Shown: positions 28,030-35,214 of the stretch, piece after piece
How the letters are laid out: every line of letters begins with the position of its first letter
Numbering within the stretch: the first letter of the stretch is position 1
Assembly (NCBI GenBank): GCA_039794845.1
Contig: JAUQVK010000025.1
Location: forward strand, 32,001 to 96,000
DNA from: Thermostichus sp. DRC_bins_24
GTDB lineage: Bacteria > Cyanobacteriota > Cyanobacteriia > Thermostichales > Thermostichaceae
Direction of reading: 5' to 3'
DNA: 64,000 bases
Notes under the pieces: model-generated
What the model was told of the DNA's origin: nothing
The model's input: the letters and a program-made list of their open reading frames with translations, nothing else
Databases searched by the model: none
Position numbers and translations under genes: made by a program

Positions 28030-28244
28030 GAGGAAACCGGGGGCATGAGCAACAGAACTTAAGTATGACAAAAGACACCCGACAACAGGGGATCCAAGCG
28101 GGAGCAGGTAGCCAAGAGTGGGGGGATCCCGATCAAGCGGAATCGAGCCGCTGGTTCGGACCCGGGGCCAGATGAAGGCGTCCCCCCGTCTTTGAATGTC
28201 GGGAGAATGTCAGAATGAGGACGATATGCTTCCTGGCGTCAACG

Positions 28245-29438
28245 ATGAAACTAGCCTACTTTGACTGTGCGGCGGGTATTGCAGGCGATATGTGTTTGGG
28301 GGCGTTACTGGATTGTGGGGTGCCCCTGGAATACCTGAACCGGCAGCTGCAGGCGTTGGGGCTAGAAGGGGAATTTCACCTACAGGTGAACCGGGTGAAG
28401 CGCTGTGGCCAACCGGCTCTGCACGTGGTGGTGGAGGTGTTGGGATCCGAGGTACACCGCGCCCGTCATTGGCCAGAAATCCAGGCCATTATCGAGGGAT
28501 CCCAGTTGGCCCCCGCCATCAAGGCCCGCAGCCTCGCGGTGTTCCACAAGCTGGCCCAGGCGGAAGCAAAGGTGCACCAAATGCCCTTGGATAAAGTTCA
28601 TTTTCACGAGGTGGGGGCGGTGGATGCCTTGGTGGATATCATCGGCACTTGCATCGGCCTCGACTGGCTGCAGGTGGAGCAGGTGTTGTCTTCTCCTCAT
28701 CCGATTGGAGGGGGCTGGGTGAATACAGAGCATGGCAAGCTTTCTGTACCGGTGCCGGCAGTGATCGAGCTGTGGGAAATGGCCCGTGTGCCGGTCTTCA
28801 GCAACGGTGTCGAAGCGGAGCTGGTCACTCCTACGGGGGCAGCTTTGGCGGTGGCTTTGGCCCAGGAGTTTGTTCCCTGCCCGCCGATGCGGGTGGAGAA
28901 AGTTGGGCGCGGGGCCGGTACCCGTGATCTGCCGATCCCGAATGTGTTCCGCCTTTGGCTCGGGGAAACCGCCGGGGCAGAGCAGACAGAAACCGTGTCG
29001 GTCTTGCAAACCCAAATCGACGATCTCAACCCTCAGGTCATCGCCTACGCCTGCGAGCAGCTGTTGGCCCTCGGCGTTTGGGATGTGTTTACCCAGCCCA
29101 TCACCATGAAGCAAGGGCGACCAGGGGTGCTGCTGACGGTGATCTGTCCGCCGGATCGGGTGCCTGAGTGTCAAAATCTGCTCTTCCGAGAGACCACTAC
29201 CCTAGGCATTCGACATTCCCAGGAGCAACGCACCCTGCTGGAGCGGGTGATCGAGCGAGTGGAAACCCCCTATGGCCTGGTGGATGTCAAGGTGGCCCGC
29301 CATCACGGCCACATCGTCAACGCCCAACCGGAGTTTCGAGATTGTGCTGCCCGCGCCCAAGAATTTCGGGTACCGGTACAGACGGTATGGTTGGCGGCCC
29401 AGTCGGTTTGGCAAAAACGCCTACAAGTGAATCCCTGA
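28245..29438 (+). CDS. larC: Nickel-insertion protein LarC
   Basis: YFDCAAGIAGDM, VHFHEVGAVD, TPTGAA, MKQGRPG, ETTTLGIR, PEFRD. Confidence 0.95.
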   Translation: MKLAYFDCAAGIAGDMCLGALLDCGVPLEYLNRQLQALGLEGEFHLQVNRVKRCGQPALHVVVEVLGSEVHRARHWPEIQAIIEGSQLAPAIKARSLAVFHKLAQAEAKVHQMPLDKVHFHEVGAVDALVDIIGTCIGLDWLQVEQVLSSPHPIGGGWVNTEHGKLSVPVPAVIELWEMARVPVFSNGVEAELVTPTGAALAVALAQEFVPCPPMRVEKVGRGAGTRDLPIPNVFRLWLGETAGAEQTETVSVLQTQIDDLNPQVIAYACEQLLALGVWDVFTQPITMKQGRPGVLLTVICPPDRVPECQNLLFRETTTLGIRHSQEQRTLLERVIERVETPYGLVDVKVARHHGHIVNAQPEFRDCAARAQEFRVPVQTVWLAAQSVWQKRLQVNP

Positions 29439-29464: not shown

Positions 29465-30271
29465 TCAGAGCAACTCGTCGATCAGCAACAACACCGGCTG
29501 TAACTCAGCCCTGAGGGATCCCGCTTGCTCCAGGTTGACCTCCACCAACTGCTTCAGGGCAAGCACCTTGATATTGGCCTCCACAGCGGCAGTGGCCATC
29601 GCCGGTGCCCCCGGCAAATAACCACTGGCCCCCAAATCCAAGAGGGCAGCCCGCCGCAAGTGAACATTCTCGTGAGCCAGCACCGGCAACAGGCGCTGGG
29701 CGAAGGCGGGATCCCCGCTGATGCGGTAGCAAGCCCGCGCAGCTGCACATTGCAGGCGAATCGAGTCGTGTTCCAGATAGGGACGAATCTGCTCGAAAGC
29801 GGTGGCCGAGCGCAGCTGGCCGAGGGCTTCGATAATCGCCTCAAGGGCAGCTAGAGCCTCTGTTTCCACCCCGACCCCGACAAAGTTCAGCCCCTCGAGC
29901 AAAACAGCCCCCAACTCCTCGATCTCGTGCCGGAGGGCAATTTCCGCCAGGGCCTGGGCCGCTGCCGCCACCACCTGGCCATCCGAGCAGCGCAGTGCCG
30001 TTTTCAGGGCTGGGATCCCGGCGGGGGATCCCAACTTGCCCAGGGCACGGGCAGCATTGCGACGCAGCGGATACCCCCCTTGGGCGGTGCGATCCCGCTC
30101 GTCTGCCAGCGCCTCGATCAAAGCCGGGATCCCTTCCGAGATGCGCATCCGCCCCAACCACCAGGCCGCATAGTAGCGTTCCCCCGGATCCCCGTGGCGC
30201 AGCTTGGCGATCTGTCCGGCGGGGGTCAGATCCGCCGGTGGATGGGGATCCAGGGGAACAGCAGTGGTCAT
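29465..30271 (-). CDS. cpcE: Phycocyanin alpha-subunit phycocyanobilin lyase subunit (HEAT repeats)
   Basis: RYYAAWWLG, GGYPLRRNAARALGKL, LRRAALLDLGA; position in the cpc operon. Confidence 0.9.
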   Translation of the reverse strand: MTTAVPLDPHPPADLTPAGQIAKLRHGDPGERYYAAWWLGRMRISEGIPALIEALADERDRTAQGGYPLRRNAARALGKLGSPAGIPALKTALRCSDGQVVAAAAQALAEIALRHEIEELGAVLLEGLNFVGVGVETEALAALEAIIEALGQLRSATAFEQIRPYLEHDSIRLQCAAARACYRISGDPAFAQRLLPVLAHENVHLRRAALLDLGASGYLPGAPAMATAAVEANIKVLALKQLVEVNLEQAGSLRAELQPVLLLIDELL

Positions 30272-30304
30272 GGAAGCAATGGCAAAGGGAACAGCAAGGA
30301 GAGA

Positions 30305-31162
30305 TCAAGCGCTACGAACGCTGACGATCTTGGCACCCGATTTGAGTACCCGCTGCATCGTCGCCGACAGTTGATCGGCGGAAACAAAAATCTGCTGGTT
30401 GGATTTGCGCACTCGGCTGGAGGTGGCCAAGGCAGAGGCCGGGTTGAGCAGGCGGGTCACCTCCACACAGAACATGCGGTCGGATTCGCCCGTTGGGGGT
30501 CCCAAGTGCTTAGAAATGGGGCTAGGCGGCAACAGACCCCGTACCCCGATGCGCCGAATCGCCGGGGTAAACCCGGTTCCTAGGGCGGTCATCAAACGCG
30601 GCCTTGCCCCTTGGGAACGATCGTTGTTGGCATAGCCGCCGTAGAGGGCAAACAGATTGGTAAAATCGCGGGTGGAATGGGCCCGACGGTATTCAAAACC
30701 GCGCGGATAGGGGACGATGTTGTCGCCGAAGGATTCCAGATATTCTGGGCTGTCAATGTAGGAATCGATCTCCGCTCCATGGCCACCGGACTGGTAGATA
30801 TCCAAATGGCGGGCAATATCCTTGCCATCCGTGGGGGCGCGGCCCAACAGATGCTTGAAATTAAGTTCGATGGCACGGGTTTGGGAGTTGGGGTAGAAAA
30901 ACCGCTTCTTATAGGCTTCGGATTTAGCGATCAGGCGCACAAATTCCCGCACCGTCAGACTGCCCTGGCGCAGTAGCGATTCGGCACTGGCCAGCTCGTC
31001 CACATCGGCCCCGAACAGATGGTCGTTGCCCAGAATCTGGCGATAGATGGCCCGCAGCACCGCATTGAACTGATCCTGGCTGGCCTTGGGGCGCAACTCC
31101 AGTGGAGTGGTATCCGTGATGCCCCGGATCCCCATCTGGCTCGCCGCTGTGATTGCACTCAT
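30305..31162 (-). CDS. cpcC: Phycocyanin rod linker polypeptide
   Basis: AIYRQILGN, AESLL, ELNFKHLLGRAP, DSPEY..FGDNIVPY, C-terminal CpcD-like domain. Confidence 0.93.
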   Translation of the reverse strand: MSAITAASQMGIRGITDTTPLELRPKASQDQFNAVLRAIYRQILGNDHLFGADVDELASAESLLRQGSLTVREFVRLIAKSEAYKKRFFYPNSQTRAIELNFKHLLGRAPTDGKDIARHLDIYQSGGHGAEIDSYIDSPEYLESFGDNIVPYPRGFEYRRAHSTRDFTNLFALYGGYANNDRSQGARPRLMTALGTGFTPAIRRIGVRGLLPPSPISKHLGPPTGESDRMFCVEVTRLLNPASALATSSRVRKSNQQIFVSADQLSATMQRVLKSGAKIVSVRSA

Positions 31163-31396
31163 GCTGATTCCCCTGATGAACTGGATGGACAAAAGGCTTG
31201 CGTCGCCGGATTTCGGCTAGATCAAATCGGCTAGATCAAAGTAGATCGAACTGGAGCAACAGCAGTGCCCCTCTCCGGGAGATCGAACCCCAGCCCAAAC
31301 GGGGATCCATCCACCCGGCGACAGACTTACCACCATTGCCCCAAGTGACCTTCCCTCGGCATGAACCTGGGATCCCAGGCCATACCCCCTAGCTGA

Positions 31397-31879
31397 TTAG
31401 CTGAGGGCGTTGATGGCGTAGTCGATGTAGGTGTTGGCTTCGGTGGCCGCTTGTCCACTCAGGCCGTGGTTGGCCTTGATGTAGCGCAGGGCTTCGATGA
31501 ACCAACTGGGGGAGAGTTCAAAGGCGGTGTTGATCTCACGGATCCCGGCCAACTGATACTCATCCATGGGGCCGGTGCCACCCGCCACCAAGCAGTAGGT
31601 GACGTAGCGCAGGTAGTGGCGCACATCGCGGGCACACTTGTCTTTGCCGGCTTGGTTGTTGCACTGCCCACCGGGTTGGGTGGTGTAGGGGAACTTGGCG
31701 TAAACCGCTTCGGTAGCACCGCGCACAAGCTCATCCGCACGGCTGGTCAGGGCTTGAGCGGCTTCCATGCTGGCGGCAGCACGCTGAAGGCGGCCATTGA
31801 TGGCTTGCAGCTCGCTGTTGCTCAAATAGCGCCCTTGGCTATCGGCAGTGGCGATGGCATCGACAATCGGGGTTTGCAT
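31397..31879 (-). CDS. cpcA: Phycocyanin alpha subunit (divergent, 160 aa)
   Basis: [34 protein letters not shown]. Confidence 0.95.
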
Positions 31880-32070
31880 GATTCAAAACGCTCCTTTACT
31901 TAAGCTCAACGCAAAAAAACAAAGCAAAAACGGCAAGATTGCAACTGCGAAAAAATGAAAAGAGTTCTCTTCTGGGATCCCAAGACCATCACGGTCGCTC
32001 TGAACCCCATGGCAGCCCCAAACAGGAACTCAAGGCCAAGAATGACGCCCCTTTGGGTTCTGCGGAGCCA

Positions 32071-32589
32071 TCAAACCACCGCGGCCGCGGCACGATCGAA
32101 ATAGGACTCAATTTCGGCCACCAAAGCACTGCAGTCGCCCCGGGTAATGCCGTTGGGATCGTTCACCACTGCCACAGCAGCTCTCTTCATTTTTTGGATG
32201 CCATTGGCAACGGAGTTGCCGGGGGTGCCTAGGGCTTGGTAGGTTTCCCGCAGACCGTTCAAGCAGCGCTCGTTCAGCACGCTGGCATCTCCCGCCGCCA
32301 CCGAGTAGGTGATGTAGCGAAGGATGATATCCATGTCCCGCATACAGGCCGCCACGTTGCGGCTGGGGTAGGCAGGGCCACCGGGAGCATTCAGGTTGGG
32401 CTCTTCGGCGAACAGCTCGCGGATGGCATCAGTGACAATCTTGGAGGCATTGCTGGTGAGGCGGTTCACGGCATCCAGGCGCTTGTTGCCTTCGGCGATC
32501 ACCTGCTGTAGGGCGGAAAACTCGTTGGCTCCCAGAAAGGCACCTTTGGAGTCGGCCTGTGCAACAACTTTGCCAAATACATCATTCAT
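32071..32589 (-). CDS. cpcB: Phycocyanin beta subunit (divergent)
   Basis: GNKRLDAVN, Cys82, [17 protein letters not shown] (Cys153), YFDRAA; 172 aa from the ATG at 32589. Confidence 0.95.
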
Positions 32590-33328
32590 GGTTTTGGATC
32601 TCCCTAGCGAAAGCAAAAGAAGTTATGAATCAACACTCCCCTCTACGGAACTGAGAGCACCCGCCGGACGGGAATGCAGCAACGCTCGGATCCCTGCTGC
32701 CGAGGGGCGCTGTTTCCCTGAACAGACCCGCCGACGGGATCAAAGCCAGTAGAACCAAGACGGGCAAGCAAACCCTCGTAGGCCTCAGCCGCAACAAACC
32801 AACCCCCGAGGGAAAACCACTCGGCGGCGTAACCTGCCGGATCAAGCTCGGATGGAGATCCCCAGTGGCGCTCACCCCGGAGCGGGATCACGGATGGCAA
32901 CTTCAACTGGGCAGACGAGGAGAAGCTGGCTCGCTTTGTTTCCAGTCCTGTTCTACCGCGAAGGCGGGAAGCGATTAAGTCAAAAAATGTAAAGGGACTT
33001 TACCCGGCGCAAGAAAGCTCGGATCAGTTCCCACTGCGGGATCCCGATTTGCCTACTCTACCTTTCACAGCCGTAGTTTTTACAAAAGAAGATATTCATT
33101 TGTATAAGTTTATATTGTAAGGAAAAATGTCAATCCCGATCTTGGCTTCGGGGCTTGGATTGAGGTCGTTTTCTGTGCTAGAGCGAACATTCTCAGAAAG
33201 AATACATAATTTAACATTAGTCGGAATCCTTTGGTGGAGCTGAGATTGGAGAGAAAATCTGAGAGGCCTTCCCTCGACGACCGGAAAATTTCGGTATACA
33301 TCTTTACAGAACTTCTGGACACCTGCTT

Positions 33329-33961
33329 ATGCCTGTCTGGCCCGCTCCCACCCCCTCCCCAGAGCTTTTGCAGATGGCGCGCTGGCTGGCGGGAGACTTT
33401 AGCAACCAAGAGCAAGCCTGGGAGAACCCGCCGTTTTTCGCCCAGATCCGGGTAGCCTATCGCCCCTTGCCCCTCCGGGTGCTGGGTGGGATTGGCTTTT
33501 ACGTGGAGCAAGCCTACGGGGGTCATTTGGAGGATCCCTATCGACAGGCGGTGGTGGAGTTGGTGCAGGCAGGATCCGAGATTGTCATTCGCAACTATCG
33601 ACCCCTAGAGCCGGAACGGTGGCGGGGCTGCGCACGGGAGCAGGCGGATTTGTTAGGCCAGTTGACGGCGGACGACATCACCTATTTGCCGGGGTGCGAT
33701 GTCCGGGTCAAGCAGCAGGGGCAGATCTTTGTCGGAACCACCGAACCGGGGCAGCAGTGTTGTGTGGTGCGCAAAGGGCAGACCACCTACTTGCAGACCA
33801 CCCTACACCTGAGCGAAACCGAGTTCTGCAGCCACGATCAGGGGATGGATCCCGTCACCCATCAACAGGTGTGGGGGGCTTTGGCGGGGGCGTTTCGCTT
33901 CCAAAAGGTCGTCGATTGGCAAGCGGAGCTGCCGTTGTTCCCAGCAGATCCAGCCCTTTGA
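33329..33961 (+). CDS. cpcT: CpcT/CpeT bilin lyase
   Basis: WLAGDFSNQEQA.ENPP.FA, EQAY, PYR, PGC, CCVVRKG..TYL, DQG.D, VWG. Confidence 0.93.
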   Translation: MPVWPAPTPSPELLQMARWLAGDFSNQEQAWENPPFFAQIRVAYRPLPLRVLGGIGFYVEQAYGGHLEDPYRQAVVELVQAGSEIVIRNYRPLEPERWRGCAREQADLLGQLTADDITYLPGCDVRVKQQGQIFVGTTEPGQQCCVVRKGQTTYLQTTLHLSETEFCSHDQGMDPVTHQQVWGALAGAFRFQKVVDWQAELPLFPADPAL

Positions 33962-34107
33962 CCCCCAACTTGACTGCACTCTTGCGCGACTGTGGCTGGT
34001 AAGCCCTGGGTACACTGACCTTGGGGACTTTGGGTTGGAAAGATGGGGATCCCATCGGTCGGGATCGCTCCCTGCCTAGGTTCCCGATGGAGTGTGAGCG
34101 GGATCCG

Positions 34108-35214
34108 ATGCGTCCACAGCTTGAGAAGGGAAATGTCTTGCGGTGGGGATCCCTGGCCGCCGGAGTCTGGCGCACCCTGTGGGGGATGTTGGCCTTGGTG
34201 TTGATGCTAGTCAGTGGCGGGTGTTCTGGCCCAGGTGAGTCTTCTGCATCCACGCTGGTGCCCCCACCCCCCCAGTTGGGGACCGAATCGATTCCGATGC
34301 CGGTACGCACCCTGGGCATGAGCCGCTTTAAGTTGCTGGGGTTAAACGTGGGGGTGGCTGGAGGCAGTGCCGAGTTGCTCTTGGATACGGGCTCGGCAGG
34401 GGTACGGATCGTGTCTAGTGCCGCCGGGAGTTTCGGCCTGGAGCGTACTTCGATTCCTTCTACCATCACCTTCGGGGATGGCACCCAATTCATCGGAGTG
34501 TTGGCCCGTGCTCCCTTTAGCCTCGGGGGGGTACAAAGTCGGGAACCCGTCACATTACAGTTGATTGACCGGGTAACCTGCGTGGATGCACTGGTCGCCG
34601 GCTGTTCAGAAACCTTGTTTGGGGAAGGGCGACCCTTTGCCGGGATCCTTGGCACCTCCTTGGATGAGCGCAGCGCCGACCGAGAGGTCTTTAGCCCACT
34701 GACTCGCTTTCCCGGAAATTTCCGCTCCGGTTATATCATTCAAACGGGTGGCTTTGATTCCAGCCAGGGCCTTTTTACCATTGGCCTCACGGAAGCCAAT
34801 ACGGCAGGATTTAATTTCCGGCAGTTTCCACAGGTGGGCTCTTTTCCTGACGGTACTCCGATTTGGCGGGATGAAGCGCTCCAGGTGGCCTATAGCATTA
34901 GCAACACCTCCATTCAAAATGTCCCCAGCCCCACCAACTTTGACAGCGGTTCCTCCGACATTTTCTTGAATGTCAGTTTGCTGGGGGCGGCACCCTTTTC
35001 CACCAGCACATTGCCGGCGGGGGCGGAATGGCGAGCGGTTTTGGATGGGGCTTTCGATTACCGCATTCGGGTAGGATTTCCGGTTACCCCCAGTCGGGAT
35101 CGGATTTTTGTGAATGGGCTTTTGAATAAGCAGCTGTTGGGCATGCCACTGTTTTTTAATGCCGATGTTGCTTTTGATATCGAGCGGGGCCGCATCGGCT
35201 TTCGCCTGCGTTAA
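34108..35214 (+). CDS. Pepsin-like aspartic-protease lipoprotein (DUF3443-like); start uncertain
   Basis: Hydrophobic signal ending VSGGC; LLDTGS and NFDSGS motifs; TFGDG flap; GILG; LLGMPLF...FD...RIGF. Confidence 0.75.
   Translation: MRPQLEKGNVLRWGSLAAGVWRTLWGMLALVLMLVSGGCSGPGESSASTLVPPPPQLGTESIPMPVRTLGMSRFKLLGLNVGVAGGSAELLLDTGSAGVRIVSSAAGSFGLERTSIPSTITFGDGTQFIGVLARAPFSLGGVQSREPVTLQLIDRVTCVDALVAGCSETLFGEGRPFAGILGTSLDERSADREVFSPLTRFPGNFRSGYIIQTGGFDSSQGLFTIGLTEANTAGFNFRQFPQVGSFPDGTPIWRDEALQVAYSISNTSIQNVPSPTNFDSGSSDIFLNVSLLGAAPFSTSTLPAGAEWRAVLDGAFDYRIRVGFPVTPSRDRIFVNGLLNKQLLGMPLFFNADVAFDIERGRIGFRLR

Follow-up and report, generated by a model that had tools for sequence, protein, structure and literature searches.

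A second phycocyanin of the hot-spring family Thermostichaceae, with Asn72 of the beta subunit replaced and an extra cysteine in a shortened alpha loop

We analyzed a phycocyanin operon in a 64,000-nucleotide stretch of DNA from Thermostichus sp. DRC_bins_24 (positions 32,001 to 96,000 of contig JAUQVK010000025.1, assembly GCA_039794845.1). The whole stretch is called the window here, and coordinates count from its first letter. The operon runs on the minus strand. Its first two genes, cpcB2 (32071-32589, an open reading frame from an ATG at 32589) and cpcA2 (31397-31879), encode a phycocyanin beta subunit of 172 residues and an alpha subunit of 160 residues, which match PF00502 with 184 and 187 bits. 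They are followed by the rod linker gene cpcC (30305-31192), whose start is ambiguous between a TTG at 31192 and an ATG at 31162. Its product has the CpcC architecture, an N-terminal PF00427 domain (residues 38-164, 152 bits) with a C-terminal CpcD-like PF01383 domain (residues 239-293, 57.5 bits). The last gene, cpcE2 (29465-30271), encodes a 268-residue HEAT-repeat protein resembling the lyase subunit CpcE, which scores 251.7 bits on NF058502 (E = 7.8e-75), under the equivalog cut-off of 330 bits, and also matches PF03130 and PF13646. Divergent from cpcB2, on the plus strand and across an upstream region of 740 bases, cpcT2 (33329-33961) encodes a CpcT/CpeT-family lyase that matches PF06206 with 215.7 bits over positions 1-181 of 181. 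We refer to the phycocyanin of this operon as PC2.

A preliminary description, made from the DNA letters, had called this phycocyanin atypical and credited it with a linker and lyases of its own, and the Pfam and NCBIfam assignments above agree with it. A read-out of the sequence likewise reproduces the 160-residue alpha chain, its bilin-binding Cys82 and the two codons at issue on the minus strand, CCT for Pro72 of CpcB2 (32374-32376) and TGC for Cys73 of CpcA2 (31661-31663). The description had also remarked that cpcD, cpcF and cpcG are not nearby. Profile and tblastn searches found none of the three in the window and located them on contig C4 of the same genome.

Both subunits are close relatives of C-phycocyanin. 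The solved structures nearest to CpcB2 are C-phycocyanin beta chains (E = 2e-76) and those nearest to CpcA2 are C-phycocyanin alpha chains (E = 8.5e-75, 253 bits), whereas solved phycoerythrocyanin alpha reaches 191 bits against CpcA2 and phycoerythrins are clearly weaker too. On the equivalog models the two subunits fall short: CpcB2 scores about 271 bits (270.3-271) on TIGR01339, which has a cut-off of 279.3, and CpcA2 scores 258.8 bits (258 on rerun) on TIGR01338, which has a cut-off of 269.45. To locate the differences we compared each subunit with an ordinary set, the 106 of 107 beta matches (P0134-P0240) with 172 or 173 residues and the 110 of 111 alpha matches (P0010-P0120) with 162 or 163 residues; these sets are the top matches to CpcB2 and CpcA2 and not a sample of all phycobiliproteins. 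A signature position was one whose residue occurs in at least 90% of the PC2 crown, the 18 genomes defined below, and in at most 5% of the ordinary set.

Asn72 of the C-phycocyanin beta subunit is normally methylated by CpcM and tunes the beta-82 bilin. CpcB2 keeps the bilin-binding Cys82 and Cys153, both invariant in the alignment, and has proline at residue 72, so that the gamma-N-methylation site is gone, as had been proposed. Asparagine is indeed the norm at this position, being present in 105 of the 106 ordinary beta chains; the remaining one has lysine in place of Asn after PGG, and none has proline. Arg78 is present in all 106. Fifteen beta positions are fixed in the PC2 crown, and six of them fall within residues 67-87 flanking Cys82 (I67N, N72P, T75P, R78N, M79V and E87D). 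In the source genome the asparagine is retained, in PGGNAY or PGGNMY, by CpcB1 (from a second phycocyanin cluster, below), by ApcB and by the remaining subunits of beta type.

A search of the source genome for CpcM gave 30 matches to PF08241, of which eight candidates (375-473 residues) fit no CpcM-specific NCBIfam model and carry only the generic protein-cluster name ‘class I SAM-dependent methyltransferase’ (SAM, S-adenosylmethionine). Contigs C68, C37 (two genes), C24 and C91 hold five paralogous class I SAM methyltransferases of 420-442 residues with an N-terminal catalytic domain, and one of these five may be CpcM.

The alpha subunit is changed in the corresponding region. The bilin-binding Cys82 of CpcA2 lies in GKDKCARD, which retains the K-x-K-C-x-R-D pattern, and aligns with Cys84 of the solved chains. 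Ahead of it, where the alpha signature positions concentrate, the B-E loop has two residues fewer. One of those missing is Tyr74, found in 108 of 110 ordinary alpha chains; Ala75, also found in 108 of 110, is replaced by Cys73, nine residues ahead of Cys82. None of the 110 ordinary chains has a cysteine in the loop before Cys84, in keeping with the earlier claims that ordinary alpha lacks an additional loop cysteine and that CpcA2 combines a shortened loop with an extra one. Further fixed changes in CpcA2 are M92Y, I110L, L113I, D114R and Y127F.

To see how widely these changes are shared, 30 species genomes of the order were searched with CpcA2, and the motifs were read in the 30 loci returned. 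A 160-residue alpha chain with GGQC occurs at 18 loci (L023-L040; genera g1, g4, g6, g7 and g8), and in every one of these 18 crown genomes Cys73 in alpha is accompanied by Pro72 in beta. One of the 18 (L035, in G024) has two neighboring cysteines in the loop, GGQCC. In a sister group, three loci (L041-L043; genera g5 and g3) encode a 162-residue alpha chain with no loop cysteine; their beta residue 72 is Asn, Ala or Gly, and the motif AYPARN(M/V)AAC is already there. The other nine loci are either of ordinary type or members of the second paralog. Within the crown, Pro72 is encoded by CCT 14 times and by CCC four times and Cys73 by TGC 17 times and by TGT once, while the adjacent glycine codons vary freely; thus the amino acids are kept against synonymous drift. 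T75P and R78N, which the crown has in common with its sister clade, thus predate N72P and Cys73. The database proteins closest to CpcB2 and CpcA2 carry the names Thermostichus or Thermostichales.

PC2 is not the only phycocyanin of the source genome, a 3.5-Mb assembly of 115 contigs that is 99.9% complete and has 16 PF00502 matches, allophycocyanin genes included. A second cluster on contig C4, which we call PC1, reads cpcB1-cpcA1-cpcD-like-cpcE1-cpcF-cpcG. CpcB1 carries the ordinary PGGNAYTNRRMAAC and scores 290.9 bits on TIGR01339, over the cut-off, and CpcA1 scores 228 bits on TIGR01338, less than the 258 bits of CpcA2. The preliminary description had advised a search for a canonical cpcBA, and the outcome is divided, since a second cpcBA exists with a beta subunit over the cut-off, but its alpha subunit ranks below CpcA2 on the alpha model. 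That description had also allowed that the substitutions might be the norm of the lineage's only phycocyanin, with Cys73 unconserved. They are the norm of the PC2 paralog throughout the family, but PC2 has PC1 beside it and Cys73 is conserved.

The remaining antenna genes are divided between the two clusters. The only linker of CpcC architecture in the genome is that of the window, and the only full-length CpcG and the only CpcF-like gene are on C4; tblastn and NF058515 found no second CpcF in the source genome, and the HEAT-repeat protein on contig C13 is NblB-like. Because cpcD, cpcF and cpcG occur once each, in the PC1 cluster, the two clusters are complementary. CpcE2 is 44% identical to the CpcE1 of C4 and scores higher than it on NF058502 (251 versus 222 bits). 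There are three CpcT-family genes, cpcT2 being one of them, two CpcS-family genes, and a single match to the bilin reductase family PF05996.

Quick maximum-likelihood trees, built with the trait-bearing columns removed and each rooted on a single long outgroup, place the two paralogs far apart. The beta tree had 66 rows, including every fourth of the 107 matches P0134-P0240 (27 sequences), with columns 66-88 dropped and ApcB as the outgroup; the alpha tree had 67 rows, with loop columns 67-86 dropped and a CpeA representative as the outgroup. A search of 50%-identity representatives was too coarse for mapping residues 72 and 73 and served as an outgroup source only. The PC2 crown and its sister group form one clade within the mainstream cyanobacterial phycocyanins, with support of 95 (beta) and 99 (alpha) in the Shimodaira-Hasegawa-like approximate likelihood-ratio test (SH-aLRT). 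PC1 is split from all other phycocyanins, with SH-aLRT values of 99 (beta) and 100 (alpha). By this placement the ‘atypical’ PC2 is a derived member of the ordinary lineage, and it is PC1 that is deep-branching. The phylogeny of CpcA and CpcB that had been advised as a check thus sets CpcB2 among the phycocyanin beta chains (branch SH-aLRT 99).

CpcA1 itself (C4:44713-45201) has a phycoerythrin-like B-E loop of CpeA length with the motif ...QPGEMGHGDVFQAKC and is 48% identical to the CpeA representative. In a CpeA search of 401 genomes, the CpcA1 type was the sole phycocyanin alpha to pass E 1e-35 (in G000, the source genome, and G020). Judged from these sequence likenesses, CpcA1 may be an old intermediate of phycocyanin and phycoerythrin.

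The division of linkers between the two clusters extends across the family. We mapped 20 larger loci from 12 genomes of the order by tblastn. In all PC2 loci examined (L057, L058, L060, L062, L064, L066 and L074) cpcC directly follows cpcA2. It is a single copy in genus g1 and in L064 (G018, genus g8) and is present in two copies in the other mapped genera. The CpcE2 gene lies downstream in six of these seven loci, and the divergent position of cpcT2 is retained in L057, L058 and L074. No cpcC was found in the 11 mapped PC1 clusters, and in all 11 of them cpcD follows cpcA1. A co-directional cpcG follows cpcF in the source genome and in G020, G011, G008 and G014. The PC1 and PC2 clusters are adjacent on one contig in G013, and the single-contig genomes G019 and G020 each hold both alpha types and both clusters, so the pair is not a binning artefact.

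The mapped loci also contain exceptions to this arrangement. G010 (L069 and L070) has PC1 together with a phycocyanin of ordinary type (Asn72) that is followed by two cpcC genes, in place of PC2, so another phycocyanin lineage is able to occupy the CpcC-linked position of the rod. The alpha loops of the two paralogs vary in parallel. Genus g5 and G009 (genus g3) have the long ordinary loop in both CpcA1 and CpcA2 (L057, L061 and L075), whereas in the crown (L059, L063, L065, L067 and L076) both loops are two residues shorter and begin QPG. In G010 (L069, genus g3), where PC2 is missing, CpcA1 has the short loop beginning QPG. The paired changes suggest, at the level of sequence, an exchange of segments between cpcA1 and cpcA2 by gene conversion.

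We consider it fairly probable that PC2 is the second phycocyanin of the Thermostichaceae phycobilisome, forming CpcC-linked discs in the rods that PC1 begins, with pigment pockets that have been retuned. With one CpcC-type linker, one full-length CpcG and one CpcF in the genome, the two clusters most simply build one rod. By its gene content the PC1 cluster alone is predicted to encode a complete one-disc rod, comprising phycocyanin, rod-core linker, cap and lyase. The PC2 cluster has no rod-core or rod-membrane linker and hence cannot dock by itself. The operon cpcB2-cpcA2-cpcC-cpcE2 and the divergent cpcT2 would supply PC2. CpcG would attach a PC1 hexamer to the core, and CpcC would add one PC2 hexamer to it, or two in the genera with two cpcC genes. 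The order suggested by gene linkage is core-CpcG-PC1-CpcC-PC2, so that PC2 is probably distal to the core.

Pigment attachment can be assigned along the same lines. Since CpcE2 outscores CpcE1 on the CpcE model and has no CpcF of its own, we infer that it is an alpha2-specific partner that pairs with the single CpcF to serve CpcA2. CpcT2 would serve Cys153 of CpcB2. The pigment of PC2 is expected, from the single bilin reductase gene, to be phycocyanobilin, and the rod would then consist of two kinds of phycocyanin disc with phycocyanobilin alone in both.

How the pockets might be retuned is suggested by where the changes lie. The alpha-84 and beta-84 pigments of adjacent units face each other across the alpha-beta contact. 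Passages of a recent study place the alpha B-E loop at this contact between alpha-beta units in the trimer (PMC12883523, 2026). The changes around both pigments would shift the energies of the alpha84/beta84 pair and presumably the spectrum of PC2, and Pro72 would remove the need for CpcM methylation of CpcB2. The likely purpose is that PC2 acts as an energy donor to PC1, the role taken by phycoerythrocyanin or phycoerythrin in other cyanobacteria. A C-phycocyanin that emits at 639-640 nm does so at a rather short wavelength. Passages of PMC4484337 give ~639-640 nm for the 77 K phycocyanin emission of related strains, and this value is the only hint on the direction of any spectral shift in PC2.

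Several observations weigh against this rod model. The disc order is read from gene linkage, and the linkage is not clean: in genus g5 (L057 and L075) cpcG faces the PC1 cluster in convergent orientation and reads in the same direction as the PC2 cluster, and no cpcG was found beside PC1 in the mapped loci of G018, G009 and G010. The cap linker gene cpcD sits in the PC1 cluster and not in that of PC2, which would be the distal disc. As for retuning, the Asn, Ala or Gly of the sister clade may mean that position 72 first became unconstrained, in which case proline need not tune the pigment. The composition of the ordinary sets and the single long outgroups of the trees, both described above, are to be counted on the same side.

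A separately regulated antenna module, in which PC2 would be a rod extension dependent on low light or nutrients or would build rods of its own, seems to us unlikely, although it deserves to be weighed. PC2 has its own operon and lyase genes apart from PC1, with a 740-base divergent region upstream, and a one-disc rod could be made from the PC1 cluster by itself. Tolypothrix sets a precedent for such a module with its inducible second phycocyanin operon. Related strains, according to passages of PMC4484337, also cut their phycobiliprotein content at high light. Yet the PC2 cluster encodes no rod-core or rod-membrane linker by which rods of its own could dock, and PC2 is present in all 18 crown genomes irrespective of habitat. 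The preliminary description had proposed a second, conditionally expressed antenna from the absence of cpcD, cpcF and cpcG beside the operon. This argument fails, as those genes sit in the complementary PC1 cluster, and with the clusters complementary an independent second antenna is unlikely. Promoter, terminator and Rfam scans gave no signal above chance. A search for sequencing runs that contain the stretch turned up none of RNA. One metatranscriptome of the same study, searched at 85% likeness, returned two stray pieces and none on cpc genes, a yield with no bearing on expression.

It is decidedly improbable, in our judgment, that Cys73 is a second covalent pigment site, at which each alpha-beta unit would hold a fourth bilin or the bilin bound at Cys82 would gain a second thioether, with a larger cross-section or a color shift as the result. 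Conservation speaks for such a site. Cys73 is invariant in 18 of 18 crown genomes, with one synonymous change, while the residues that follow it vary (N/H/C/Q/S, then N/T/S), and a loop cysteine is absent from all 110 ordinary alpha chains. There is also a precedent, since the alpha subunit of phycoerythrin II has an extra pigment-binding cysteine at alpha-75, as stated in passages of PMC2246261. We compared CpcA2 with five MpeA-like genes from picocyanobacterial genomes, recognized as second phycoerythrin-alpha matches with Cys 75, 83 and 140, and the context is alike, (K/Q)-C-x3-GKEK-C in the five against Q-C-x4-GKDK-C in CpcA2. The three CpcT-family and two CpcS-family genes of the source genome might provide for an additional attachment.

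However, the spacing to the canonical cysteine is nine in CpcA2 and eight in the MpeA-like sequences, and MAFFT places Cys73 one column off the MpeA cysteine. Nor does any lyase gene track Cys73. CpcE2 and CpcT2 exist in the sister clade, which lacks Cys73, and so predate it; five crown genomes (G022, G023, G029, G015 and G016) have no third CpcT, and in the sister clade, among 30 genomes counted, the number of CpcT-family genes is two in G009, three in G012 and four in G013. The second bilin at Cys73 suggested in the preliminary description therefore keeps the conservation of the residue in its favor and has the one-column offset from MpeA Cys75 and the lack of a tracking lyase against it. 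With one bilin reductase gene, phycoerythrobilin and phycourobilin are not expected either. The known double linkage requires a vinyl group on ring D, which phycocyanobilin does not have. The sole PF05996 match, from which phycocyanobilin alone is expected, would thus rule out that linkage, and the double thioether that had also been suggested is unlikely.

An extension of this idea appears very doubtful, on the sequence evidence, in which a second pigment contact at Cys73 (a fourth phycocyanobilin, or a thioether that shortens the conjugation) combines with a beta pocket free of methyl-asparagine to give a short-wavelength phycocyanin from phycocyanobilin alone. If it were true, PC2 would do the work of phycoerythrocyanin or phycoerythrin in a lineage whose sole bilin is phycocyanobilin.

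We also regard as very unlikely an explanation by heat stability, in which N72P, T75P and the loop shortening would have no spectral meaning. The lineage is thermophilic, judging from the names of the closest matches, two of the fixed beta changes introduce the rigid proline (N72P, T75P) with loss of a deamidation-prone asparagine, and the alpha loop is shortened. Against these points, the asparagine persists in CpcB1, in ApcB and in the remaining beta-type subunits of the source genome, beta 72 can be Asn, Ala or Gly in the sister clade, and the changes concentrate at stretches that contact pigment instead of being spread over the protein. A phycoerythrocyanin (PecBA) identity for PC2 is not borne out, with 191 bits for PecA against 253 for phycocyanin alpha and no F-type subunit at the locus to complete a PecE/PecF pair.

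Some further genes were noted at the locus and elsewhere in the genome. On either side of the PC2 locus lie a LarC nickel-pincer cofactor gene (28215-29438, plus strand) and a 397-residue open reading frame (34021-35214, plus strand) whose matches to DUF3443 and aspartyl-protease-like families are weak and under the Pfam cut-offs. An allophycocyanin-like pair at C72:6016-7117 resembles what we take to be the low-light, far-red ApcD4/ApcB3 type of related strains (compare PMC10038336). At C6:13509-17186, a 172-residue protein with PF00427 only and weak CpcG-like matches adjoins two very divergent phycobiliprotein-like open reading frames (PF00502, 21-63 bits), and two further lone divergent PF00502 frames lie on C95 and C84.

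Passages of PMC8556327 describe the gamma-N-methyl-asparagine of beta 72 as one that is among the most conserved features of the beta subunit and is thought to be important for efficient energy transfer. An early-branching and ecologically dominant hot-spring family dispenses with this asparagine in one of its phycocyanins, and the graded series from Asn, Ala or Gly in the sister genera to an invariant Pro in the crown amounts to a natural experiment on the purpose of the methylation. If the colors of PC1 and PC2 differ, the rod would have an energy gradient made from one pigment by protein tuning, with heat-stable variants on offer. If the spectra are ordinary, PC2 is a lineage-specific sequence variant of limited interest.

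The two clusters themselves have been reported before. Tang et al. (2023; PMC10053587) describe them in six Thermostichus strains, in the same arrangement of cpcB-A-D-E-F-G and cpcB-A-C-E with a divergent cpcT, and call their functions unknown. Passages of that paper count two cpcF and two cpcT genes, whereas we find one CpcF-like and three CpcT-family genes. Another paper, PMC4477158, has nothing on cpc genes. The text passages of PMC10053587 make no mention of Pro72 or Cys73, which its supplementary alignments may show, and our literature search found no published report of a phycocyanin with proline at beta 72 or with alpha Cys73. The pair of clusters is thus known since 2023, and the residue changes were not found in print.

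Compared with the C-phycocyanin of cyanobacteria and red algae, PC2 shares the fold, the length class and the three pigment-binding cysteines at about 70-78% identity, and its locus likewise includes a gene for a CpcC linker and lyase genes of CpcE and CpcT type. It differs in Pro72, Asn78 and the short loop with Cys73, with both subunits just under the equivalog cut-offs. The CpcE/CpcF lyase is represented at the PC2 locus by a CpcE-like subunit with no CpcF adjacent to it.

Parallels to the proposed rod are the inducible second phycocyanin of Tolypothrix/Fremyella PCC 7601 (cpcB2A2) and phycoerythrocyanin (pecBACEF), paralogous rod biliproteins that are encoded with their rod linkers and lie distal to the core-proximal phycocyanin. 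Both keep Asn72, whereas PC2 has lost it. Phycoerythrocyanin obtains its color through the isomerizing PecE/F; the PC2 locus lacks an F-type subunit, and the genome has the one CpcF-like gene. MpeA resembles CpcA2 in carrying an extra cysteine ahead of the canonical one in a similar context, yet the two positions are offset by one residue. It binds phycourobilin or phycoerythrobilin, neither of which is expected in the source genome, and its third site, at 140, is absent in CpcA2.

Acaryochloris marina, as presented in passages of PMC12883523, also has two alpha-beta pairs, which form separate alpha1-beta1 and alpha2-beta2 complexes and differ in the alpha B-E loop. The masses of its subunits were calculated without methylation of Asn72 (PMC12883523), but the asparagine itself is kept there, whereas in PC2 the residue is replaced. 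Its antenna consists of single phycocyanin rods (PMC12883523), while the rods of Thermostichaceae would join PC1 and PC2 as successive discs.

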